A DNA stretch of 64,000 bases from contig CAYHHI010000003.1 of assembly GCA_964356335.1 (NCBI GenBank), positions 162-64,161 of the forward strand, in the 5' to 3' direction. Under the pieces are notes generated by a model that saw only the letters and a list, made by a program, of their open reading frames with translations, was not told where the DNA came from and did not search any database. This document shows positions 23,252-64,000 of this stretch, in pieces. This DNA is from an uncultured bacterium. Its GTDB lineage: Bacteria > Arandabacterota > Arandabacteria > Arandabacterales > Arandabacteraceae. Position 1 is the stretch's first letter. Each line of letters opens with the position of its first letter. Made by a program: the position numbers and the translations under genes.

Positions 23252-23289
23252 ATACTCCAACATGCCAATCGGTTCCGATGCGACAAGAA

Positions 23290-23613
23290 GCCGCAGCGGG
23301 GTCTGAGTCGGAGGCGAATGTAGTATTGAGCCGGAGATCAGCCCCGCAAGGCGGAGTCAGTGGTGCGTCGCCGCCGGATGCCCTTCGGTTAGAACCCCAA
23401 GCCCTTCGGGCCATCCGTCGGCTCGGCACGGCGATCGCAGCGTGTGTGGAACGTTCGCGAAGAGCCGTAGCGGGGTCTGGATCGGAGGCGAATGTAGTAT
23501 TGAGCCGGAGATCAGCCCCGCAAGGCGGAGTCAGTGGTGCGTCGCCGCCGGATGCCCTTCGGTTAGAACCCCATGCCCTTCGGGCTATCCGTCGGCTCGG
23601 CACGGCGATCGCA
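23290..23613. repeat. Near-identical 150-bp direct tandem repeat (two units, 24-bp spacer, about 97% identical) in the intergenic region between the two C1 peptidase genes
   Basis: Unit 1 is 23290-23439 and unit 2 is 23464-23613. They differ at about 5 positions. Each unit contains two CUUCGG tetraloop hairpins (gcccttcggg) and a ccgcaaggcgg hairpin. This repeat creates the spurious minus-strand ORF 23025..23603. Confidence 0.8.
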
Positions 23614-23703
23614 AGGGCTGCGAAATGTCTTCCCTTGCCATCATGGCTGCCGATTTGTAGAGTTACCTATGACCACGACGCGGTCTCCGGGAGGGTGCCC
23701 TTG

Positions 23704-53034: not shown

Positions 53035-53142
53035 AGACGACCCCGCTTGACCTGCGGCCCGACTGTAGCAGTCCCTGTGATAATGGAACGGCCAACGTTG
53101 GCTTGAGTCGCTGAGGATCCGATTGGGTAGCCACGAAGTCTC

Positions 53143-53997
53143 TCACTGTGATGATTCCGGTTCTGATTGTCGAAACACTGTTCGTGACAACAGCTCGGTT
53201 GCACAGGCGGTCAGCGCGAATATTGCCAGAATGCTAAGGTAGATCTGTAGAGCGCTCAGATCTCCGAAATCCCACCAGTTATGGCGGGTGAGATTTACCG
53301 CTGTTGTATTCAGTACGGCATGGAAAAACATCGCTATAAACAAACTGCCATTGCTCCATCGCCAAAAGTGCCCCATGGTAAATGCGATAAGAGTCGTGGA
53401 TATCGGATATAGCACGACGAATTGCGACCAGTCCAATCCATTGCGGAAATCTGCAAACCTGAATGCTGGAAGATGCCAGAAAGCCCAAACGAGGCCGACT
53501 ATGATTGCCACAGTGACTGAGCTTGCACGGCCCTGCAAATGAGATTGGAGAAAGCCACGCCAACCCATCTCTTCGCCCAACGGGCCAAATCCTAAAATGA
53601 TTCCGCCTACGAATGCATTCAACGGTACCAGCGCGATCATGGTAGTAGCGATTTTCCATAGAGCGATTTTGGCTGAAATACCCAGGACAAGATAGAATAG
53701 CAGTCCGATCACTGGCATCATAAAGAAGGTGACGACATAAATTCGCCAGTTTACCCTTACTAGAATCACGCGCTTCAGCAGGCTGACAATAGACGAGCGC
53801 CCACCAGTAAAGCCAGCCATCACCAGCGCAGCTATGGTTGGGCCGAAACTGCCTGCCAAGAGGAATCCCGCGAATCTTTCGTCTTCAAGGCTGGTCAGTC
53901 CATCAATTGATAATATGCCCGTCAACCAAATCACCCACGAAACAGCATAGGCGATGACCACAAAGGCCAAGATGGACCTAACTTCACGATGCTTCAT
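53143..53997 (-). CDS. CPBP family intramembrane metalloprotease (CAAX protease/Abi-like)
   Basis: EExxxR motif GPLGEEMGWRGFLQ and FxxxH (FWHLPAF) in a 7-8 TM protein. Start at MKHREV. The upstream in-frame extension lies in the R repeat element and was rejected. Confidence 0.75.
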   Translation of the reverse strand: MKHREVRSILAFVVIAYAVSWVIWLTGILSIDGLTSLEDERFAGFLLAGSFGPTIAALVMAGFTGGRSSIVSLLKRVILVRVNWRIYVVTFFMMPVIGLLFYLVLGISAKIALWKIATTMIALVPLNAFVGGIILGFGPLGEEMGWRGFLQSHLQGRASSVTVAIIVGLVWAFWHLPAFRFADFRNGLDWSQFVVLYPISTTLIAFTMGHFWRWSNGSLFIAMFFHAVLNTTAVNLTRHNWWDFGDLSALQIYLSILAIFALTACATELLSRTVFRQSEPESSQ

Positions 53998-54042
53998 GAA
54001 GAACCTTCTTGTACATTGACAAACCCCCTGTCTGGGCCGCCC

Positions 54043-54134
54043 AACGGTGTGGCTGAGTGGCGGGGCCAGCCGGCGCGGGTCTTGCCACTGCAAGAGCCGT
54101 GACGCCGCAGTCTCCATCCGTCTCAAGCCACTCG
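54043..54134. repeat. R-element copy 1: ~92-nt intergenic repeat with imperfect terminal inverted repeats and an internal hairpin
   Basis: Starts AACGGTGTGGCTGAGTGGCGGGG. Internal hairpin CTTGC-CACT-GCAAG. The 3' end CTCAAGCCACTCG is the inverse of the 5' end. Lies 46 nt upstream of the CPBP start on the minus strand. Confidence 0.7.
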
Positions 54135-54800
54135 ATAGCGATTACCCCCGGTATTGTAAGTCAGGGTCCAATACCCGGCTTCCGGGTACTCTCTGTAGCT
54201 GAAGGGCGCAGCAAGGCCGGCCAATTGCTCAGCGATCTCCTGTTCAGTGGGAAAGTTCTTCACGATCTCCCACCGCGACCCATCCCGAAGGGTTCTGTGC
54301 TCGAGCAAATTCCCCTCTTGATCCCGCCGGCGATCTGCCCACTCATAGAGCAACTGATCGGCAAATACGACCAATGCCCCAGGTGTCAACTTCTTATGAA
54401 GCACACTGAGTAACTCTCTCAGCCTTGACTTGGGGACATGCGACCACCACCAATGGGAAAAGGCAGCAGTGAAACAACCATGAACACTATTCAAAGTATA
54501 GGCGTCGGCAACCTCGCACCGGACATTGCCAACCGAACCAAGTTTGCTTCGCGCTAACGATATCATTCCCGGATCTATGTCCGTCGCCAGAACCGAGCGT
54601 GCCGCTACAGCGATCACTTCAGTCCAGTACCCCGTACCACAGGCAATCTCCAGGACGTCATAACCTCTCAGTGCCTGCTGAAACCTGGTCTTGATGGGCT
54701 CGCGAAGTTGCTCGGCCAAAGCATCCATGTACCCGGCTGAAGCATCGTAGACCTCTGCGCGAGCTGCGTAGTACCTGGCCACATCATCCGTCAACGCCAC
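54123..54800 (-). CDS. Class I SAM-dependent methyltransferase
   Basis: VLEIACGTGYWT motif I. Confidence 0.8.
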   Translation of the reverse strand: MALTDDVARYYAARAEVYDASAGYMDALAEQLREPIKTRFQQALRGYDVLEIACGTGYWTEVIAVAARSVLATDIDPGMISLARSKLGSVGNVRCEVADAYTLNSVHGCFTAAFSHWWWSHVPKSRLRELLSVLHKKLTPGALVVFADQLLYEWADRRRDQEGNLLEHRTLRDGSRWEIVKNFPTEQEIAEQLAGLAAPFSYREYPEAGYWTLTYNTGGNRYRVA

Positions 54801-54844
54801 TGCAACAACACCCCCGAATCGCTAACGTCGTGCGTACCAGCCGC

Positions 54845-54945
54845 GGACGAAGGGCGGCGGGGTGTGTGCCGGCCCCGTAGGCCGCGCCGTCCTTGCAGAC
54901 ACCGTGACGCCCGAGTCCGGCGGCTGCATACGCTTGTTAGCCTGC
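54845..54945. repeat. R-element copy 2 (degenerate)
   Basis: Segment ggccgcgccgtccttgcagacaccgtgacgcccgagtcc aligns with the R core (ggcgcgggtcttgccactgcaagagccgtgacgccgcagtc). The 5' invariant block is missing. Lies upstream of the methyltransferase start. Confidence 0.4.
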
Positions 54946-55641
54946 ACCGCCGGTCACCGCCACAACGTTACCAGACTGCCACAACCCCCCAGTGGCAGCG
55001 AGCCAGCCAGCGATCCTGTCGGTGATTGCCATGATGTCACCGTCAGAGACGTCGACCTCTAGTGAGGGAATCCGGGACTGTCCGACAATCTCCCGCATGA
55101 GCTCCTGTTCCTCGATGAACTGCGAGATGTCCGCATACTGGCTCGGCTTCCCAGAGACCCGCAGACGCTCGGCACGAGCCGGCTCGAATGTGTCTGGACG
55201 CCGTACACAGAACACGAGGCGGAAACCCAGCGGCACGATCCGCTCTTCCAGCCAAGCGAAGTCGATGTCCCGCTGGTGAACTCTCTTCTGGTACAAGCGC
55301 GTGGAAAGATGGAATCGGTCCGCGATCCACGAGTAGTACCTGAGGAGTTCGAACAAACGTACCCAAGTTCGGTACGTCTCAATCGCGAGCTCCTCCTCCC
55401 CAGGCAAGAAGTTGATCAGCCCGCGCCCCCACGGTATGTTCGTGAACCCGCACCACTCAGCCGAGATGAGCGGAGAGTGATATCTGTACGCGCGCTCGCC
55501 GACGATTCGAGGATGCTCGTTGAGCGCAAACGCGATCTCCGTCTTGAGGGTCAGACGTGTTCCCTCAAGTATGATCTTGGGGCACAACTTGGCGCCGCTG
55601 GGCACACCCGGCGTGTGACCCCTGGCCTCTTCGACTCTCAT
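54937..55641 (-). CDS. Hypothetical protein (defence-island gene, function unknown)
   Basis: ~235 aa with no motif recognised. Probable start at the internal M (MRVEEARG). Confidence 0.4.
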   Translation of the reverse strand: MRVEEARGHTPGVPSGAKLCPKIILEGTRLTLKTEIAFALNEHPRIVGERAYRYHSPLISAEWCGFTNIPWGRGLINFLPGEEELAIETYRTWVRLFELLRYYSWIADRFHLSTRLYQKRVHQRDIDFAWLEERIVPLGFRLVFCVRRPDTFEPARAERLRVSGKPSQYADISQFIEEQELMREIVGQSRIPSLEVDVSDGDIMAITDRIAGWLAATGGLWQSGNVVAVTGGAG

Positions 55642-55672
55642 TGACACCTCTCGCGGCAAGGCCGAGCAGGAT

Positions 55673-55760
55673 AACGGTGTGGCTGAGTGGCGGAGTGAGG
55701 TGGCGCGGCGCTTGCCTCCTGCAGGCGACGCGACGCCAGCAACGTCAGCTCGAGCAACGT
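55673..55760. repeat. R-element copy 3
   Basis: AACGGTGTGGCTGAGTGGCGGAG... with internal palindromic hairpin GCCTCCTGCAGGC. It fills the gap between the stop at 55762 and the downstream start. Confidence 0.65.
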
Positions 55761-55761
55761 G

Positions 55762-56379
55762 TTATGCACCCTGATGACACAAGCGAAACTCCCGCACTTC
55801 AACTACTCGTGAATCCTTGGGAATGCCTGCTCTCTTTCCAGTCGCCCACTCAAGAATCACGTCTGGGATCTTCGTCAACTGCAACTTCTCTACCGAAATA
55901 CTTGAGGGGAGGGGCAGTGCCTTCGCCTGGCGCAATGCCTCTTCATACCGCTCTCGATCAAGATCTGACTCTTGCGGGTTGCCCCAATCGTAGGTGGTGC
56001 CCTCCTTCACAAACAAGCCGAGCCCCAGATGAGGCACGAATTCAATGTCGTCCCTTCGGTATTCCGCCAAGATCCCTGTATAGAGCGATTGATACAACTT
56101 CTTGACCTGCGCTTCACCCTCTTTCAGCGTAAGAGACAGCCAATGGTCATGAGATCTATGAAAACCACCCAATCGGATCTCGAAGGGACTCCAGTCACTC
56201 AACACATTCTGAATATGACTGATCAGTCGTCCCTCTCCTACGCTCTCTGGTACGGGAAACAGTACTGTGATATGCGGTTTGGTGAAATCAGACGTAGGGT
56301 CATATTCTCTCCTTATCGCGTCGATCGAGTCAGACAACTCCGCGCTGAGCTGTGGATAGAAATTCAAAGCGTAATACAT
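55762..56379 (-). CDS. 2H phosphoesterase-like protein (LigT-like; second HxT/S motif degenerate)
   Basis: First motif KPHITVLF is canonical. The second His motif reads PHLGLGL. Confidence 0.35.
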   Translation of the reverse strand: MYYALNFYPQLSAELSDSIDAIRREYDPTSDFTKPHITVLFPVPESVGEGRLISHIQNVLSDWSPFEIRLGGFHRSHDHWLSLTLKEGEAQVKKLYQSLYTGILAEYRRDDIEFVPHLGLGLFVKEGTTYDWGNPQESDLDRERYEEALRQAKALPLPSSISVEKLQLTKIPDVILEWATGKRAGIPKDSRVVEVREFRLCHQGA

Positions 56380-56849
56380 GATGTTGTCCTTCGCGTAAGC
56401 CCCTTGGGTGCTTACGCCGCGCTTCAGCGGACCGGCTACTTTTGTGGCACGTCATACGCACAGCCTACCCACACCCCACACCGCCGCCAAGCCAAGCGGG
56501 CGCATGGCCGGCTCCGCTGCAAGCGATGGTTAGCCGTCGCGCTCCTATTGCTGGTGAGCAATGGTCCTCCGTTGCTCTTGCATCTTCCTCTTCCTGCTAC
56601 GGAAAAGCACCACCAAGCTGATAATCGGAGTGAACACCATCAACAGTCCGAAGGGAATCACGCCGTTTCCCTCGGGATAAGGGTACTGGGCGACGGCAGC
56701 CCAGCATGAGAACCCTACCAAGACGAGGTTGCAGACCACTGCCACGATTCTCATAATGATCCTCCTAGGGTCGCTCGTTGCACTACGCGACGTCTCGTAT
56801 AAGAGATCAGAGAGATAATTGAGATCTCAGGGGCACACCTCTAAGATAT

Positions 56850-57423
56850 TGGTTGTGTCAGCCCCAAAGGAGGTGTGCCCTATGAGACTTAAAGAGTATG
56901 GCCGAAGTCCAGAGAAACGTAAAGAGTTTCTTCAGCACCCCGGGTTACTTATAGTGGGAATAGACGTGAGCAAAGCGAGGCACACTGCCCTTATTGGCAC
57001 CCAGCCCGCCGTGCTGTGCCAAGATGCTTGTGGCCCAGATCACGCCTGCGCTACTCGGCTCGCCTCAGGCATCCTCTCGCACCGGATTGGATGATCGCTC
57101 CGCTCCACCACCATATGATCAAGACTCATCTGTCCTGCCCCTCACGCGAGCCTGACACTAACTGGCGCATGCTCCGGCATACAGCCCGTCGTTTGAATGG
57201 GACGCTACGAGGGATCCGATGTGTCTCTAGGGCACGAAGAGTTATTCCCTTCGCAGGCTCCCTCACAGGAGCCCTGAACCTTGTATAGGGGTTTGTGTGG
57301 GACAGCTTGTTCCCACACCATAAGATAAGAAACTAAGTCAGGCAGTAAGGTCTTGAGAAACAAAGAAACCGGCGGCCCCGCCCCGGCTTCATGGAGAATT
57401 ACTCCCCTTGACCTGGGGAGGCC
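56850..57423 (+). mobile_element. IS110-family insertion sequence remnant (internally deleted, left end missing)
   Basis: Short ORF MRLKEYGRSPEKRKEFLQHPGLLIVGIDVSKARH (DEDD N-terminal motif) is joined directly to frameshifted C-terminal Transposase_20-like remnants (CGPDHACATRLASG and SARLRHPLAP resemble IPGIGPxTAxTLLAE and SARQLAAYxGLAP). The right end ...GGGGAGGCC matches the copy at 58213..59168. About 85% nucleotide identity to that copy over ~420 bp. Confidence 0.5.
57350..57386 (-). terminator. Possible minus-strand terminator inside the IS remnant right end, downstream of vapC
   Basis: On the minus strand: hairpin CCGGGGCGGGGCCGCCGG followed by a TTTCTTTGTTTCTC T-rich tract. Confidence 0.35.
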
Positions 57424-57444
57424 TCATAGGTGTTCGACACAGCA

Positions 57445-57843
57445 TCACCTATGCAACACTATCGGTAGATGCTTCGCATATAGCACAAAGTCATTGTCAG
57501 TCGTGAAGACGGCCAGCCGGTGATGCACAGCCACGGCGCAGATCAGGAAGTCCGTGTTTGATCCTTGGACTCCCTTACTCCGGCACTCATTGTAGAACCG
57601 AGCTGCCATGACGTAGTCCTCGCTGGTGACGGGAAGGTCGGGAAACGCACTGAGATGTGCCTCGAGCTCCTTGAACTGCGCTTTGTCACGGATCCCTGAG
57701 AGCAGCTCTTGGCGAATCGCACCAATCATCTGCACCCGATTGTCAGCAATCAAACCCCGGAGTTCACGGACCGGCCCAAGGGTGCTATCGCTGCCACGGC
57801 GAAGCGCCAACGACCAGACGCTTGTGTCGACCAGCACCCTCAT
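57445..57843 (-). CDS. vapC: PIN-domain toxin VapC
   Basis: MRVLVDTSVW N-terminal Asp and the C-terminal TTDNDF acidic motif. Confidence 0.8.
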   Translation of the reverse strand: MRVLVDTSVWSLALRRGSDSTLGPVRELRGLIADNRVQMIGAIRQELLSGIRDKAQFKELEAHLSAFPDLPVTSEDYVMAARFYNECRSKGVQGSNTDFLICAVAVHHRLAVFTTDNDFVLYAKHLPIVLHR

Positions 57844-58055
57844 CGCCGCGCTCGCTGCTTCTTGTAGTCATAGCTTGCATCGTACTCAATGGCACCGAAA
57901 AGAGATCCGATCTTCTCCTGTTCCAAATGCTGCACATAGGTCACCAGCGCCTGAGTCACCGCTGCCTTCTTGGTCCGGTGCCTGCCGAGCCTGACGGCCT
58001 TGCGGATAAGTCTGTCATCAATCTGAAGATTGGTAGCCATCGTCATCGCCTCCAC
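57840..58055 (-). CDS. vapB: VapB-family antitoxin
   Basis: 71-aa protein whose gene overlaps vapC by 4 bp. Basic helical N-terminus. Confidence 0.6.
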   Translation of the reverse strand: MEAMTMATNLQIDDRLIRKAVRLGRHRTKKAAVTQALVTYVQHLEQEKIGSLFGAIEYDASYDYKKQRARR

Positions 58056-58110
58056 ACATATTCTGACACAACACTATGTGTAATGTCAAGAGGTATTTCC
58101 CAGGGCGTCC

Positions 58111-58203
58111 AACGGTGTGGCTGAGCGGTGGGGCAAGGTGGCGCGGCTGTTGCCACTGCAACAGACGTGACACCGTAGCAGCCGTCCGCTCGAGCCACTG
58201 GAT
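58111..58203. repeat. R-element copy 4
   Basis: AACGGTGTGGCTGAGCGGTGGGG... with hairpin GTTGC-CACT-GCAAC. The closing pair is changed in a compensatory way relative to copy 1. Lies 56 nt upstream of the vapB start, immediately outside the IS110 left end. Confidence 0.7.
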
Positions 58204-58282
58204 ACTCATTGAGGCCTCCCCTTAGGGAGCCTCCCGAGCGTATGCTCGGGGGTAGACATCTGGCTGAAAGGAGGAGACCTCA

Positions 58283-58693
58283 ATGAGATTCTATACCAAA
58301 CAGCGCGTCTTCTACTGCGGTGTTGATCTCCACGTCAAGTCCATGTACGTCTGCATCCTGGACCAGCATGGCGAGATCACCCTACACCGCAACCTGCCCG
58401 CAGAGCCAGAAGCCTTTCTCTCGGCCATCCAGCCTTACCGCCAAGACATCGTCGTCTGTGCTGAGTGTATGTTCAGTTGGTACTGGCTCGCAGACCTCTG
58501 TGGAAGGGAGAACATCCCCTTCGTCCTCGGTCACGCATTATACATGAAGGCCATACATGGGGGAAAGGCCAAAAACGACAGGATAGATTCCCACAAGATC
58601 GCGGCACTCCTTGCCCATAGGCTCGGCAGAGCTGTCTACTTCATGCTCCTGCGAGAGAAGGCATTTGATATGAAACGATTCCTTACTAACTGA
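58283..58693 (+). pseudogene. IS110-family transposase, N-terminal 136 aa only (truncated)
   Basis: The DEDD RuvC-like N-terminal domain is present. The Tnp_20 C-terminal domain and its catalytic Ser are absent from this frame. Confidence 0.7.
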
Positions 58694-59104
58694 TCCGGAG
58701 GGAGCGGCCAAGCCAGACGCCTAACTGGAGCCATCTATGAGAAGCCACTCAGGTACCAGCAATGTGCCAAAATGCTTGTGGCTCGGACTACACCTGCGGT
58801 ACTCGGCATCTCTCAGGCAGCCTCTCGCACTTGATTGGATGGCCGCTCCGCTCCATCATCATATAGTCAAGACTTGCCTGTCCTGCCCCTCACCCGAGCC
58901 CGACACTAACTGGCGCATGCTCACGTGTGCAGCCCACCACTTGACTGGGACGGTACGAGGGAGCCGATGCGTTTCTAGGTCGCGAAGTGACTTGCCCTTC
59001 GCAGGTTCCTCTCGAGGAACCCTGAACCTCGATAGGTGTTTGTGTAGGACAGCTTTTCCCCACACCAAATGATGAGAAACTAAGTCAGGCAGTGAAGTCT
59101 TGAT

Positions 59105-59134
59105 GAAAAAAACGAAGCCGCCCCCCGTCGGCTT
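59105..59134 (-). terminator. Minus-strand rho-independent terminator inside the IS right end
   Basis: Minus strand reads AAGCCGACGGGGGGCGGCTT hairpin followed by CGTTTTTTT. It would terminate the methyltransferase/lipoprotein transcript. Confidence 0.5.
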
Positions 59135-59227
59135 GATGGAGAATTATTTCCCTTGACTCGGGGAGGCCTTATAGGGGTTACGCCTGCTGTGGTGCTGCTG
59201 CCAGCATCGACTGGCGCGCACCACCGT

Positions 59228-59638
59228 TTATGGTCGCACGTAACAAGAGTCGAGCAAGATGGGACCGCTCGACTGCACCTCCACGTAGGCCCAGCCACTG
59301 CCGGCAGGCTCCAGTGCGATAGTGGTCTCGAAGTACTTGAGCTCGCGGGTGCAGTGAGTCCCCTTGGGTGGTGTCCCAGATAGACCTATAGGGCGTAGGA
59401 TCCATCTCGACCCCACCATCTCCGACTCGATTCGCGCGAAGCGATCACAGCAGCATCCCGCGATACCAGAGACAAAAGCATCAATCGCGTGCTCGGCATC
59501 GACTGAATCTGGAACCTGTAGGGTTAACGCGTAGGCCAGAAACTCCTCGGGCTCAGGCTCCGGCTCACTCGTCCCACAACCTGACGATATCACCAGCCAC
59601 ACAAGCGGGATGATCGCCATGCACCGTCTATGGCACAT
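59228..59638 (-). CDS. Hypothetical lipoprotein
   Basis: Lipobox VISSGC after a signal peptide. Confidence 0.4.
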   Translation of the reverse strand: MCHRRCMAIIPLVWLVISSGCGTSEPEPEPEEFLAYALTLQVPDSVDAEHAIDAFVSGIAGCCCDRFARIESEMVGSRWILRPIGLSGTPPKGTHCTRELKYFETTIALEPAGSGWAYVEVQSSGPILLDSCYVRP

Positions 59639-59682
59639 TCCTCAGATGTCTCCTCCGTTCAACCTTCGCCCACCCTCCCGGC

Positions 59683-60402
59683 TCACACCGCCGTGCCAAA
59701 TTGCAGCCGTTGGTTCGCAGCCTCTGGTTGCCTACTACAAACCATGGCGTAAACGTCGCGATCACGGATGATCTTCTGACAAACCCATCCTGTCTTCCTG
59801 ATCATGTCCTCCGCGACGTTGCTCGTGAAGTAAATTCGATCAAACGGCTCACCGGCTTGACCGGCGTATTTGAACCGCAGCGCGTTTCGCATCACTCCGG
59901 GTTGCACATTGCACATCTCCGGTCTGACCTCAACAGAATCGAAGATCAGGACGCCGTTGCACGAGCAACACTGATGGCATTGGCTCAGCAGCGACTCGAC
60001 TCGTGATAGGCTACCCGCAGTGCAGATCGTCCGGTTGAGGAACAGAATCGTGTCCATGGGGGCAAACCTGCTGAGGTTGTCGTACGACTCGACAGAGACC
60101 TTGCTGATTCCCCGCCGCTTGCACAGGGCGATAAGCATGGGATCAATATCAAATCCCGACGCATCTGCGCCTTGGTCTTGCAGATGCTTCAGGATGCGTC
60201 CGGCTCCGCACCCAACGTCGAGAATCCTTCCTCTCGCGTGCTGCAATGCCTCCCGTTCATGCGTGTCTGGCGTCGCTGTAAGATAGAACGCCAGTCCCAA
60301 GGGATGATCTCCCGTCTCGTCCGACACGACGAAACAGCCTTTGGGTTGACCGTCATAGAGATCGGTCAACGCCTCACCGAACAATATCCGTTTACCCGTC
60401 AT
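59683..60402 (-). CDS. Class I SAM-dependent methyltransferase
   Basis: ILDVGCGAGRIL motif I and DIDPMLI motif II. Confidence 0.75.
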   Translation of the reverse strand: MTGKRILFGEALTDLYDGQPKGCFVVSDETGDHPLGLAFYLTATPDTHEREALQHARGRILDVGCGAGRILKHLQDQGADASGFDIDPMLIALCKRRGISKVSVESYDNLSRFAPMDTILFLNRTICTAGSLSRVESLLSQCHQCCSCNGVLIFDSVEVRPEMCNVQPGVMRNALRFKYAGQAGEPFDRIYFTSNVAEDMIRKTGWVCQKIIRDRDVYAMVCSRQPEAANQRLQFGTAV

Positions 60403-60416
60403 CTTCTATTCCTGCG

Positions 60417-60513
60417 AACGGTGTGGCTGAGCGGCGGGCGGAGGCGGCGGGGCTGTTGCCCGCCTCTCACCGCAAGAGCCATGCGGCCGAAGCCACGTCC
60501 GCTCAAGCCACTT
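60417..60513. repeat. R-element copy 5
   Basis: GAACGGTGTGGCTGAGCGGCGGGCGG...CAAGAGCC...CTCAAGCCACTTG. Lies 15 nt upstream of the methyltransferase start and downstream of the Mrr-like gene stop. Confidence 0.65.
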
Positions 60514-60559
60514 GTTGGCGATCGCGACTGCTGTGATTCCGAGACAGCGGCGTAACATG

Positions 60560-62248
60560 CTAAGCATTCCCTTCGGCCTTCCTCTCGTCGGCTAGAACTT
60601 GCTTGGCAGCCCTGAGATCGATTATGGCCTTGTGACCATGTTTTTCCAAGAGGTGGAGTAGGTTTGATCCACTGAGAAGGGTGAGCGGTTTCCCCTTCGC
60701 AAAGGCGTATGCGTCTGGGCCATAGTCTGCGGTGGTGACCAAGATTCCCTTGGTCGCACCTTCGTTGACCACGGTGCCGTAGAGGTCTCGCACTGCCGAG
60801 ACACCAACGGTATTTGTATATCGCTTGGCCTGGATCACGATCTTTCCTCCTCGTATCGGGTCGGGATCGAAGGCAATGGCATCAACCCCGCCGTCTCGGC
60901 TGGCTTGTGTGATCTTGACCTCCCCGCCGCCTTGCGAGAACTCTTTCTCGAAGATCTCACGAATGAGATGCTCAAAATCCTCCCAATCCATCGCGGCAAG
61001 ATTAGTAGACTGGTCGACTTCTCCGACCACTGAGTACGATGACACGAATCGCTTGTCCTCTCTGTTCAGCTGCAATATCGGAGCAATGGGAGACAGGCCG
61101 TGCAACTTGCTGCTTCCAACACCCTTGAGGGTCTTGAAGCAGATTTTCGGTTCAACATGCCTGAGGTCGACCCCTTGGAACTCGCTACGCGGGGCTTGAA
61201 CGGACAAGACACAGACCGTTATGGGCTTGCCGGTTCCCTTGTCGATCGAGCGAACCCAGCCGTTGAAAACCACTCCGGCAATGGCCTCGGTCTGGTCGGA
61301 CTCATATACCTCATGCACTGTTCTGAGAGCAATCTGATACAGAAGACTATCATATAGCTTGTTGAACGCGGCCTCCTGGATATGGACTTCAGCGAATTCA
61401 TCTTTTGACGCTACGTACTTGACCTCTCTCAGGGTCGGGATATCCTCGGGAGCGGGCAAGAAGTAATCGATGACAAGGGTCTTTGTCTCTGCCTGATAAT
61501 CTAGATTCCACTCCTGCGGGAACGTATCGGGATACTGAGAATTGGAGAGCACCATTTCGCAGTATTCAGCTATGGCTTGTGGCTCCAGCGCGAAATAGGC
61601 CTTCTTCCTCTCCAGAATGGCCTCGTTCTTCTCAGCTTGCGCGAGCTGGTATTGGCGCTGTTCTTCCTCCCACCGCTTCAGGTTCGACGCGTAGTCCTCT
61701 TCAATCTTCTTGTTCTTCGTCTGCACTTCAGAGACTTCCTTGTTCCAGCCTTGGTGTGCGACAGTGAGCCTCTCATGGGCTTGCTGTTCAGCCTTTTGCC
61801 GGAGCCCGCCGAAAAGAGCGTAGTACCACTTGCGGGCCGGTCGGAACTGGTGATCAGACTCCTTGGGCTCCGTCGGGAGGGGATGTGGTTCGGGCTTCTT
61901 GGGGCGAGGGGTAGGGAAGGCTGTATTGTCGAGTAGCGACTCCCACGCAATGCGATCGTCCACCTGTAGCGTGTGGAGCAGTGTTTGCTCGATTCTCGCA
62001 ATGGCCTCTTGGGCCTCCGCTGTGCGTTGGGCAGCCAGATTCTTCTTTGCTTCCTTCTCACGGGCTGACGCCTCTTTGGCCGATCGTGCCTGCTCGACTG
62101 CTTGCTTCTTCTCCCACATCTCGTCCCACACCCGCCGCTGAGCTTGTGCCTGCTGCTCTACCACGTTTCGATCCGTGCCTCTGATGAGTCGATACTTGTG
62201 AAGGCCGTCATGACTGACCTCAATTCGATAAGGTGCATACCCGGGCAT
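60560..62248 (-). CDS. Mrr-cat (restriction endonuclease-like PD-(D/E)xK) domain protein with long coiled-coil N-terminal region
   Basis: C-terminal WEDFEHLIREIFEK...GGVDAIAF...IVIQAKRY matches the Mrr catalytic domain D...(E/Q)xK pattern. The N-terminal ~350 aa are K/E/Q-rich coiled-coil. Confidence 0.7.
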   Translation of the reverse strand: MPGYAPYRIEVSHDGLHKYRLIRGTDRNVVEQQAQAQRRVWDEMWEKKQAVEQARSAKEASAREKEAKKNLAAQRTAEAQEAIARIEQTLLHTLQVDDRIAWESLLDNTAFPTPRPKKPEPHPLPTEPKESDHQFRPARKWYYALFGGLRQKAEQQAHERLTVAHQGWNKEVSEVQTKNKKIEEDYASNLKRWEEEQRQYQLAQAEKNEAILERKKAYFALEPQAIAEYCEMVLSNSQYPDTFPQEWNLDYQAETKTLVIDYFLPAPEDIPTLREVKYVASKDEFAEVHIQEAAFNKLYDSLLYQIALRTVHEVYESDQTEAIAGVVFNGWVRSIDKGTGKPITVCVLSVQAPRSEFQGVDLRHVEPKICFKTLKGVGSSKLHGLSPIAPILQLNREDKRFVSSYSVVGEVDQSTNLAAMDWEDFEHLIREIFEKEFSQGGGEVKITQASRDGGVDAIAFDPDPIRGGKIVIQAKRYTNTVGVSAVRDLYGTVVNEGATKGILVTTADYGPDAYAFAKGKPLTLLSGSNLLHLLEKHGHKAIIDLRAAKQVLADERKAEGNA

Positions 62249-62351
62249 ACTTACTCCTCTCGCTCATGCTTCAATCTTCATAGTTCTCCATGTATCGCCA
62301 ACTACTGCGCTCAGCGGCAGGCGCCTTGCGCCTGCCCGCTGGATCGTGTCG

Positions 62352-63599
62352 CTATGTCAATGAACTCGACTGCCAATCGGTCCACTTGGTAGGCCAGGAT
62401 GCATGTAGGTATGGACGTATTATCCCCTCCTGTTCCACGTGGGTCCCTCCCTGTGTCACCTCATCATGGGACACGATAGGGGTTAGCCGCCCAGGTTTGT
62501 CCGCGTTGGACGAGCCGCCTAAGTAAGTGATAAACCGTTTGACCGGTCTGCCTTCGCCAGCGGCCAGTAAGCGTCGCGTGATGACATCGGTAATGTTATC
62601 TCGTAATAGCGGACTCAGCACATTCAGCATTGCCTCACCGGCGACGTTGTCGACAACGGAATGAATCATCATGTCACACGTGGGCTCCTTCACGCTATAT
62701 GTGGCGTAGGACACTAGGGCCGAATCCCCAAGGTGCCAGGTGCGAGTCTCCAGCGTGAGCCCCAGGTTGAAAGACTCCGGGCCGCTCAAGATTGCTGACT
62801 TTCGCGCTCTGTCCAATTCGGCGAATTGTGATTCCACCTCCTCGTACGAGCGCCCTGTGGCCTCGCCAGCATGCGCGAGTAGCCGTAGCAATGCCGCCGC
62901 TGGTTGATATTCGTGCGGTAGTGATTCCCATCGCGAGGGGACCATGATAGAGGAAGGCGCAGCTAGATCCTTCAGAGCTGAGTAATGCTCCTGCCGGAGA
63001 GCATAGGAGAGTTTCACACGAATAGGGGCGAGCGTTCCTCCATCATAGGTGACCAATGCTCGTTTCTTGAAAGTGAGGTAAAGGAGGTCGCGAAGTATGG
63101 GCTGTAGCTTCTCAGCAAGTATCGCCGCATCAATGTCTGCAATTGGTCTCCCGAGAGCACACAATATCCCTCTCAGAACGACCCTTAGGCCGTCGCCAGT
63201 GGAGACGGCAAGACGATCGGCTAGAGGAGGGGAGAAACGTCGAACGCCCTCAGCGTCCACCTCATGCCAAACGGGCAGAATCAGATGGGTGCCCTCGGCC
63301 GTCTCACGTGCCACTATTCCGTCCAACTCGCGCTGGGGCCATTGCTTGGCAAAGAAATGAGGGCTAAGAACGACGATGGCACGGTCGCATGTTGCGAGCC
63401 CCTCGTCTATTCGCCTTCGAATGCTGTCGCCGACCGAGAGGGTGAATTCATCATACCAGACCGGTACGCCACGCTCCCGCAATGCACGTGCCAACGGGCC
63501 GACAATCGCAGTCTTGTCCTCAGAGGCGTGAATAACAAAAACCCCGGACCGGGGCGCTTGGCTCGAACTGTGTTCCGCTGATCTTGCTGCGTCGTTCAT
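62352..63599 (-). CDS. TIR-domain protein with an uncharacterised ~260-aa C-terminal domain
   Basis: N-terminal VFVIHASEDK...VPVWYDEFTLSVGDSI...AIVVLSPHFFAKQWPQRELDGI is a TIR fold with the conserved Glu of NADase-type TIRs (W..REL). The C-terminal domain was not recognised. Confidence 0.7.
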   Translation of the reverse strand: MNDAARSAEHSSSQAPRSGVFVIHASEDKTAIVGPLARALRERGVPVWYDEFTLSVGDSIRRRIDEGLATCDRAIVVLSPHFFAKQWPQRELDGIVARETAEGTHLILPVWHEVDAEGVRRFSPPLADRLAVSTGDGLRVVLRGILCALGRPIADIDAAILAEKLQPILRDLLYLTFKKRALVTYDGGTLAPIRVKLSYALRQEHYSALKDLAAPSSIMVPSRWESLPHEYQPAAALLRLLAHAGEATGRSYEEVESQFAELDRARKSAILSGPESFNLGLTLETRTWHLGDSALVSYATYSVKEPTCDMMIHSVVDNVAGEAMLNVLSPLLRDNITDVITRRLLAAGEGRPVKRFITYLGGSSNADKPGRLTPIVSHDEVTQGGTHVEQEGIIRPYLHASWPTKWTDWQSSSLT

Positions 63600-63630
63600 T
63601 GTGCGTAGCTCCGTGGCATAACGGTGCCGC

Positions 63631-64000
63631 CTAGCTGATCCATATCTCAGTCACGAGCGCGCGGATAAATCGATCTACCCGCTGGAACTCTCCACGCCCG
63701 GCAAGGTCAAGTAGCGCTATAACCGCTGTGTCATCAAGGGGAATGACCAAACCCCGCTCGTCGCGGAATGTGTCCCGGCAACGTTCTGCGAAAAGGGCGC
63801 GATTCTCAAACTGCCTGCAACAAATGATCCCGACCTTCCCGCGCTGGCGGGAGAACCTCCCAGATATCTGATCGAGCTCCGGGTTGGCGATATCACGGCG
63901 GTAGTTCTTGCACTCAATCATGACGTAATCGCACGGCACATGCCGGAGATCGCGGAGATCTGCGAAGATTCCCCGACGCGCCCCGTTCTCCATCACAATG
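63631..64000 (-). CDS. PD-(D/E)xK nuclease-like protein, C-terminal part only (gene continues beyond the window end)
   Basis: DYVMIECKNY is the D-x(n)-E-x-K restriction-endonuclease-fold core. No start codon within the window. Confidence 0.4.
   Translation of the reverse strand, partial: IVMENGARRGIFADLRDLRHVPCDYVMIECKNYRRDIANPELDQISGRFSRQRGKVGIICCRQFENRALFAERCRDTFRDERGLVIPLDDTAVIALLDLAGRGEFQRVDRFIRALVTEIWIS

Follow-up and report, generated by a model that had tools for sequence, protein, structure and literature searches.

What is a repeat of about 95 nt doing between consecutive genes of what looks like a bacterial defence island? The question is raised by a 64,000-nt stretch of DNA from an uncultured bacterium (contig CAYHHI010000003.1 of assembly GCA_964356335.1, positions 162 to 64,161 of the forward strand; hereafter, the window), in which five copies of the repeat lie among genes carried on the minus strand. 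The original prediction, made from the sequence alone, described a novel element located in the 5′ region of the gene that follows it and offered several possible roles: a shared operator or promoter, a 5′ untranslated region (UTR) RNA element, a repeat of the miniature inverted-repeat transposable element (MITE) or repetitive extragenic palindrome (REP) type, or a target site of an adjacent IS110 element. The analysis described here leads to another answer: the repeats are very probably integron attC sites of a gene-cassette array, which is read on the minus strand from high to low coordinates. The claim of novelty is lost with this identification, since the element has the sequence and structure of an integron attC, a well-known kind of site; the sequence family and the array themselves are a new example from uncultured bacteria. 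Thus, what appeared to be a novel regulatory repeat of a “defence island” is a standard integron recombination site, and the outcome is chiefly a correction.

The repeats themselves are real. The exact 15-mer AACGGTGTGGCTGAG occurs four times in the window (at 54043, 55673, 58111, and 60417), always on the + strand, and when up to three mismatches are allowed, there are 11 matches versus a mean of 1.93 in shuffled sequence. A covariance model derived from 36 copies of the family (model R1) was used to scan the whole window; it recognizes five copies in the same orientation at 43 to 98 bits, four of them bearing AACGGTGTGGCTGAG exactly and the fifth degenerate. The degenerate copy was recovered at 54820-54942, on the + strand as expected, and its start lies about 25 nt earlier than had been supposed. 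The family is confined to the array region at 54.0-60.5 kb, with one weak extra match at 62296-62357, and in the 53 kb of the window outside the array, model R1 gives no credible match. Each copy folds into a single long imperfect hairpin and lies between two minus-strand open reading frames (ORFs), 14-56 nt before the next start codon, in agreement with the predicted placement. Read as attC sites, with R′ and R″ denoting the terminal 7-mers of the + strand, they are as follows.

54039-54140, + strand: attC E1, 3′ end of the methyltransferase-1 cassette (R1 74.5 bits; hairpin; R′ GCCCAAC, R″ GATAGCG)
54820-54942, + strand: attC E2, divergent, 3′ end of the cassette of a 240-aa hypothetical protein (R1 42.9 bits, E 2.5e-9; R′ CGCTAAC, R″ GTTAGCC, the GCTAAC/GTTAGC ends being paired)
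55669-55767, + strand: attC E3, 3′ end of the 2H-phosphoesterase (2′-5′ RNA ligase-like) cassette (R1 78.6 bits; fold; R′ GGATAAC, R″ GTTATGC)
58107-58200, + strand: main part of attC E4, 3′ end of the cassette upstream of vapBC (R1 98.1 bits, match 58107-58207; fold z −5.7; R′ GTCCAAC), broken after ...GAGCCACTG by the insertion sequence (IS) IS-B
59177-59183, + strand: displaced R″ 7-mer of attC E4, GTTACGC, recognized by rejoining 58200 to 59177
60413-60520, + strand: attC E5, 3′ end of the Mrr (type IV restriction enzyme) cassette (R1 95.1 bits; fold z −3.2; R′ TGCGAAC, R″ GTTGGCG)
57432-57438, + strand: R″ 7-mer GTTCGAC (GTCGAAC on the gene strand) of the vapBC cassette attC, the rest of which is gone beyond the insertion sequence IS-A

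The family is found well outside the window. When 185,579 species genomes were scanned for the family 18-mer, a metagenome-assembled genome (MAG), JBAQHK01, proved to hold over 35 copies, distributed over about 20 small contigs and spaced like cassettes; real copies were also found singly in MAGs labelled Zoogloeaceae, Krumholzibacteriota, and Eisenbacteria. A two-part pattern retrieved 82 metagenome contigs, on which model R1 counts about 190 strong copies in 182 kb. For comparison, 50 genome-contig loci (about 22 of them with real copies) and 80 metagenome contigs were fetched, and the family totals more than 200 copies over the MAGs and these 80 contigs. Moreover, the window segment 60455-62689 is identical to a 2.2-kb Logan contig obtained in a search with the Mrr protein, and an identical 2.2-kb segment is present in the read set ERR3804377; for the TIR and methyltransferase-2 proteins, the searches gave no record. 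The R′/L′ arms are near-identical in loci assigned to Zoogloeaceae, Krumholzibacteriota, Candidatus Eisenbacteria, and unclassified MAGs (L022, L039, L044, and the JBAQHK01 loci, L003-L051). The presence of the family in MAGs labelled as several phyla reflects either a cross-phylum flow of cassettes or the mis-binning of cassette-array contigs. One locus (L008, 4364-4413) carries a 50-nt “mini” attC consisting of R and L boxes only (GCCCAACGGTGTGGCTGAGCGGCGGAGTCCGCTTGAGCCACTTGTTGGGT), with the whole variable terminal structure deleted.

How closely do the copies resemble attC? The bottom strand of an attC begins with R′ (5′-RYYYAAC-3′), which pairs with R″ (5′-GTTRRRY-3′) (PMC5027507). Between them come a central spacer of 5-6 nt that is unpaired, an L box, and a variable terminal structure, for a total of 57-141 nt; the R″-L″ arm bears extrahelical bases, usually G16 and a conserved T23/24, separated by a 6-bp stem (PMC5027507). 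In the family studied here, the + strand of every copy starts with NNNNAAC|GGTGTGGCTGAG, and most copies end with ...CTC[G/A]AGCCACT[T/G]GTTNNNN; in an alignment of 150 copies, the consensus of the ends, [G/A][C/G/T]C[T/C]AAC ... GTT[A/G/C]G[G/C/A]C, fits RYYYAAC/GTTRRRY. The AAC and GTT triplets are the only universally conserved bases of attC. They are present in at least 149 of the 150 copies, and in the window, AAC is found in all five copies and GTT in E2, E3, E5, and the restored E4. The copies of the window are 99-123 nt long, inside the published range.

The predicted fold has the corresponding geometry. In the consensus, GTGGCTGAGCGG pairs with CCGCTC(G)AGCCAC, leaving the unpaired spacers GGTGT (5 nt) and ACTT (4 nt, or 5 with the adjacent C). 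Counted from the 3′ end, column 16 is unpaired and holds G in 135 of the 150 copies; it is followed by six paired columns and then, at column 23, by an unpaired bulge that is T in 145 copies. Of the window copies, E3 and E4 have G at position 16, E1 and E5 have A, and all four have T23. Since the bulged bases sit on the 3′ arm of the + strand, this is the bottom strand; the minus strand, carrying all the genes, is therefore the top strand, and each ORF precedes its attC, as is canonical.

The pairing is supported by covariation. Of 35 pairs, 11 are altered on both sides, giving 40 doubly changed cells versus 19 in shuffles, and none of 500 shuffles reaches the observed value; in 150 further copies, there are 152 such cells versus 57.7 in shuffles, again with 0/500 reaching it. 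Paired cells amount to 91.7%, versus 32-40% when the partners are slid. Both the inner stem (e.g., G-C to U-A at two positions) and the variable terminal stem covary. The original prediction was thus accurate as a description: the central hairpin with compensatory changes is confirmed, the imperfectly inverted ends are borne out by the folds, and the gene-proximal end is indeed invariant, with conservation at the nucleotide level.

The next question is to which gene each site belongs. An integron integrase cuts within the conserved triplet, making the integrated attC chimeric: its last six bases come from the next cassette and are complementary to its R″. Such complementarity is seen throughout the family. 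In the JBAQHK01 MAG, the four variable nucleotides of a right end are the exact reverse complement of those of the next left end in 11/11 pairs of neighbours lying no more than 1 kb apart, and on independent metagenome contigs, all four match in 61/66 neighbour pairs, the mean of an all-against-all control being 2.26 of 4. Within the window, the match is 7/7 for E6 (a short attC-like site described below) and E5 (R′ CGCCAAC at 62296 and R″ GTTGGCG) and for E5 and a relic also described below (R′ TGCGAAC and GTTCGCA at 59713-59719), and 6/7 for E2 and E1 (R′ CGCTAAC and R″ GATAGCG), for E3 R′ and E2 R″, and for E4 and the vapBC site (R′ GTCCAAC and R″ GTTCGAC). Being symmetric under reverse complementation, this test is blind to strand, and the orientation was set by the arm with the extrahelical bases.

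The layout of the arrays is equally regular. In 49/49 multi-copy loci, the copies are all on the same strand, with a median spacing of 803 bp, and in 60/66 related spacers, there is one ORF on the strand opposite to attC, which starts 1-95 nt past the boundary and stops at or inside R″. In the window, all cassette ORFs are likewise on the minus strand. Each repeat thus closes the preceding cassette at its 3′ end, as its recombination site, and does not belong to the 5′ region of the following gene, as had been proposed; a promoterless cassette has a short leader, and this accounts for the small distance to the next start codon. The cassette unit would then comprise 6 nt (TTNNNN) of the previous site, a short leader, one usually promoterless ORF (two in the case of vapBC), and its own attC. 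Stop codons are often found inside R″ (e.g., TAA of RYYTAAC; 55762-55767 in the window), and in 6/19 spacers, the stop ends 6 nt past the boundary.

These regularities bear directly on the idea that the repeats are dispersed palindromes of the REP/REPIN or MITE type, which an IS110 element happens to target, as ISPa11 does with Pseudomonas REPs. The resemblance is genuine: the copies are intergenic quasi-palindromic hairpins of about 100 nt, similar in size to REPINs; IS110/IS1111 elements reside in two of them; and both REPs and attC are known targets of IS1111 members. However, REPINs occur genome-wide in both orientations, depend on a RAYT transposase, and have neither a one-ORF periodicity nor complementary variable boundaries. 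Here, the copies are clustered, with none in the other 53 kb, and occupy one strand in every multi-copy locus at one-ORF spacing; the boundary complementarity of 61/66 and 11/11 is inexplicable by dispersed repeats, and the bulged G16/T23 and the AAC/GTT ends fit attC, with no RAYT or transposase-defined MITE ends. We give a dispersed-repeat origin hardly any credence.

A second possibility is that the element acts in cis, either as a shared operator or promoter or as a structured 5′ UTR RNA, to co-regulate the downstream defence genes. Its position 14-56 nt upstream of the start codons and its conserved gene-proximal end would suit such a role, and attC hairpins in polycistronic cassette transcripts could secondarily affect downstream translation. 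Nevertheless, the geometry is that of a recombination substrate and not of an RNA family, and in Rfam, no family matches the repeat at the gathering threshold or at E up to 1. Moreover, the stop codon of the upstream ORF is often inside the element, and the element travels with that ORF: vapBC homologues keep the downstream R″, while the sites upstream of them differ. Finally, vapBC has a separate promoter/operator-like sequence between the attC and vapB. Neither form of regulatory role suggested in the original prediction found support, and we consider such a function highly improbable.

If the repeats are attC sites, the same cassette should be met in other surroundings, and this is the case. 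Homologues of vapBC (72-85% aa identity) are present in five other arrays and those of the 240-aa ORF in two; these recurring cassettes have family attC flanks and different neighbours, which is evidence of mobility. The vapBC cassettes share the R″ GTCGAAC directly after the vapC stop and the matching GTTCGAC at the 5′ boundary. Specifically, the homologues in L083, L080, and L070 continue as ...GTCGAAC|AAGTGGCT[CGAG/CAAG/TGAG]CGG..., L127 has GTCGAAT, and the window has GTCGAAC|IS-A.

By analogy with the established integron mechanism, the + (bottom) strand of the site would be extruded as an imperfect hairpin, which the integron integrase would recognize via the extrahelical bases and cut between A and C of 5′-AAC-3′. 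Recombination between two attC sites would excise cassettes, and their re-insertion at attI would shuffle the array.

As for the adjacent IS110 element, the proposal that it uses the repeat as a target proved correct, as a secondary fact: the array contains two IS1111-type remnants, both inserted at the spacer/R″ junction of an attC site.

58201-59176, + strand: IS-B, an internally deleted IS1111-type element (Pfam DEDD_Tnp_IS110; NCBIfam IS110 family RNA-guided transposase, positions 1-113 of 343)
about 56811-57431, + strand: IS-A, a truncated/hybrid IS110/IS1111-type remnant with a short N-terminal transposase-like ORF (about 90 aa); the left limit is approximate

IS-B encodes a 136-aa fragment of a DEDD transposase, has a 3′ non-coding region of about 480 nt, and carries subterminal inverted repeats of 10 bp (AGGCCTCCCC/GGGGAGGCCT). 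Its insertion separates the unpaired spacer of E4 from R″. Its excision in silico (58200 joined to 59177) restores ...GAGCCACTG|GTTACGC, i.e., the family pattern CACT[T/G]GTTNNNN, and the restored E4 folds like the rest of the family. The right end of E4 had also been considered as a native GATACTC, by analogy with GATAGCG of E1; GATACT is the left terminus of the IS, as can be seen from a full-length relative in a plasmid of Candidatus Manganitrophus, with which IS-B has the terminus GATACT.ATT.AG in common. This relative (L134; CP114559.1, 3927-5563) is the closest full-length one, of about 1.64 kb, with about 70% aa identity over the N-terminus. Its flanks have only the short motif ...CTTT|GTTCGG in common with attC ends and show no attC fold; because of this, insertion at the same attC site holds only for the two copies of the window.

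IS-A is related to IS-B through the 3′ non-coding part (57015-57434 is 81% identical over 422 bp to 58763-59179), while the 5′ parts differ. On its right, IS-A adjoins GTTCGAC, which is R″ of the vapBC cassette; the body of that attC is deleted. Intact homologous cassettes continue GTCGAAC|AAGTGGCTCGAGCGG, so that IS-A was inserted at the same spacer/R″ junction. The two elements thus have the same orientation and the same junction in two different attC sites, and both are now defective.

One end of attC is a known target of IS1111-family members, among them ISKpn4 and ISPst6, which rely on a seekRNA encoded by their 3′ non-coding region (PMC11187229). In the non-coding region of IS-B, the 8-mers AAGCCACT (58742-58749) and GTGGCTCG (58778-58785) match the two strands of the attC L″ box; there are five guide-like matches of at least 7 nt, versus about one expected by a rough estimate. 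It is suggestive that the 8-mers might represent putative seekRNA-like guides directing the element to L″. IS-B resembles the attC-targeting IS1111 group (ISKpn4, ISPst6, and ISPa25) in its DEDD N-terminus, subterminal inverted repeats, long 3′ non-coding region, location at one attC end in a fixed orientation, and guide-like 8-mers to the L″ box (PMC11187229). Unlike intact members of this group, both window copies are defective, their transposases being cut to 136 aa and about 90 aa. Two IS1111-type insertions at an identical attC junction provide a natural example of putative RNA-guided targeting of attC ends.

Where, then, is the integrase? By its orientation, the array runs with its head side to the end of the window (64000), and hence intI and attI would lie past that point; only about 1.6 kb is visible past the last attC-like site (62357). 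The search was made by tblastn with an IntI1 query; it gave no match in the window and a single one among the fetched loci, in L084. The L084 protein (286 aa) is an IntI/XerA-like recombinase scoring 198 bits against TIGR02249, the cut-off of which is 265; it matches in two stretches and thus is without the IntI-specific insert. It is followed by an IS91 family transposase (455 bits), and the pair (853-2915, on the cassette strand) is located 1.1 kb upstream of two family attC sites.

Several points weigh against the identification of the repeats as attC sites. Neither the window nor the 50 genome-contig loci and 80 metagenome contigs yielded an integron integrase, attI, or Pc promoter, and the only recombinase near a family array, that of L084, is below the integron-integrase cut-off and is paired with IS91. 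In the window, R″ of E1 reads GAT where GTT is expected, and the R′ 7-mers of E3 and E5 depart from RYYY. The inter-cassette sites at 56410, 59657, 62296, and 63616 are weak or decayed, and some cassette limits are uncertain for this reason. The identification was made by a feature-by-feature comparison with published criteria, and recombination activity is presumed from the established behaviour of such sites.

The scarcity of integrases invites the thought that the sites serve a non-integron system, for example, a Xer/IntI-like recombinase without the IntI-specific domain, like that of L084. In about 0.5 Mb of related sequence, there is no canonical IntI, and the sub-cut-off IntI-like recombinase of L084 lies 2.3 kb from two family sites. 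On the other hand, that recombinase shares its operon with an IS91 transposase, the two being a common mobile pair, and among 130 loci it was met once. The related contigs are short array fragments, so that the absence of intI from them says little, and the sites carry the exact extrahelical-base geometry read by IntI proteins. A recombination system other than an integron is, in our estimation, scarcely credible. There is a small chance that the attC family is serviced by a non-canonical enzyme, for which the IS91-linked IntI/Xer-like protein would be a candidate, or by one promiscuous integron crossing phyla, the array of the window being an integrase-less defence store mobilized in trans.

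With the repeats taken as attC sites, what can be seen would be the distal portion of a complete integron or else a cluster of attC sites lacking integron-integrase (CALIN), a class of IntegronFinder (PMC4889954). It resembles a CALIN (PMC4889954) in that five or more credible attC sites share one strand, the visible 64 kb contain no intI (the criterion being two or more attC sites, with intI absent within about 4 kb), and the cargo is unrelated to the clinical resistance cassettes. A difference from a plain CALIN is that the array extends as far as that edge of the window beyond which intI is expected, so that it may belong to a complete integron.

There is also a clear likeness to sedentary chromosomal integrons, such as the Vibrio cholerae superintegron with its repeats (PMC5027507). 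These have long attC sites of about 100-120 nt, alike within and between arrays, with conserved R/L boxes and a long variable terminal structure, and their cassettes are small, mostly promoterless, and of unknown function, accompanied by toxin-antitoxin cassettes with promoters of their own (PMC5027507). The differences from the V. cholerae superintegron are the primary sequence of the family (RYYYAACGGTGTGGCTGAGCGG...CCGCTCGAGCCACTTGTTRRRY), the hosts, which are uncultured bacteria, and the integrase, which is not seen here.

From the window edge, the order of the array on the minus strand is: a partial ORF, a ThsB-like TIR protein, an Mrr-type type IV restriction enzyme, S-adenosylmethionine (SAM) methyltransferase 2, a 136-aa putative lipoprotein, vapBC, a 69-aa ORF, a 2H phosphoesterase, a 240-aa unknown protein, SAM methyltransferase 1, and a CPBP protease. 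In the order of coordinates, the genes are as follows.

53143-53997, − strand: CPBP/Rce1-like intramembrane protease (Pfam PF02517), starting 46 nt after the E1 boundary; the last recognizable cassette, at the distal end of the array
54123-54800, − strand: SAM methyltransferase 1 (Pfam Methyltransf_25, Methyltransf_11); cassette of about 781 bp, 54045-54825
54937-55659, − strand: 240-aa hypothetical protein; homologues with 74-76% identity in arrays L116 and L003, no family match in the Pfam, PADLOC, and NCBIfam searches
55762-56379, − strand: 2H phosphoesterase/2′-5′ RNA ligase-like protein (Pfam PF13563), with its stop inside R″ of E3
57445-58055, − strand: vapB-vapC toxin-antitoxin, a two-gene cassette (Pfam VapB_antitoxin, PIN)
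59228-59638, − strand: 136-aa putative lipoprotein (from the ORF list), with distant homologues in arrays L093 and L089
59683-60402, − strand: SAM methyltransferase 2 (Pfam Methyltransf_23, Methyltransf_11), starting 11 nt after the E5 boundary
60560-62248, − strand: Mrr-type type IV methyl-directed restriction endonuclease (Pfam Mrr_cat; PADLOC mREase_IV, 240 bits); cassette of 1883 bp
62352-63599, − strand: TIR-domain protein, ThsB-like (Pfam TIR_2; PADLOC PDC-S66 and ThsB)

Thus, the array carries defence-type cargo (the type IV restriction enzyme, the TIR protein, and vapBC) together with methyltransferases and unknowns. Integron cassettes have recently been reported to stockpile anti-phage genes (bioRxiv 10.1101/2024.07.02.601719; PMC12614218), and the array of the window adds an environmental example. 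For annotation, the genes flanked by the repeats should be treated as mobile cassettes, which owe their shared location to cassette capture and not to a co-regulated operon. Model R1 and the alignments A1 and A2, which define the attC family, would offer a means of collecting hundreds of cassettes from metagenomes of the wetland/sediment type.

Between the attC boundary and vapB (58046-58089, minus strand), there is a TTGACA followed by the palindromic motifs ACACA...TGTGTCA...TATGTGTGG. This upstream region is conserved in L080 and L031 and has a diverged version in L083. Judging by its sequence, it looks like a putative promoter/operator belonging to the toxin-antitoxin cassette itself.

Besides E1-E5, the window contains weaker sites, some of which are decayed or of another sequence type.

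62296-62357, + strand: E6, a short attC-like site at the 3′ end of the TIR cassette (R1 16.4 bits, E 0.04)
56410-56535, + strand: possible degenerate attC of the 69-aa ORF cassette (R1 8.3 bits, E 6)
59657-59719, + strand: probable decayed attC (relic) of the methyltransferase-2 cassette, recognized by the 7/7 boundary match alone
63616-63626, + strand: possible attC relic GCATAACGGTG, the first 11 nt of the family, read from the sequence

E6 has a 13-bp stem with one bulged C and a degenerate R″, and its fold is stable (−18.5 kcal/mol, z −3.3); for comparison, the divergent E2 forms a long single hairpin of −41.7 kcal/mol (z −4.5). The site at 56410-56535 has a bulged stem, GCGCTTCAGCGGACCGGC/GCCGGCTCCGCTGCAAGCG, and the right end GTTAGCC; its centroid fold is long, with an energy no better than that of shuffles. 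At 59657-59719, neither a stable fold (59645-59725 was folded) nor a model R1 match was obtained, and the site is kept as a relic only, on account of its 7/7 boundary match. The relic at 63616-63626 sits between the TIR gene and the partial upstream ORF and likewise shows no fold and no R1 match.

Other candidates were discarded. The segments 53035-53145, 56750-56830, 57395-57450, and 63608-63700 have folds no better than shuffles, and the hairpin at 59190-59226 folds well (z −2.75) but has GTT at both ends rather than AAC...GTT. Below about 53.1 kb, the window contains no attC-like sites. The 12 bp at 53091-53102, just downstream of the CPBP protease cassette, form a perfect palindrome, GCCAACGTTGGC; after it comes GGCTTGAG, similar to an attC arm. 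This may mark a collapsed attC or the point at which the array ends distally. Far from the array, at 23289-23628, two tandem units of about 170 nt, 93% identical and spaced by 174 nt, lie inside a large + strand ORF region and probably represent a repeated protein domain.

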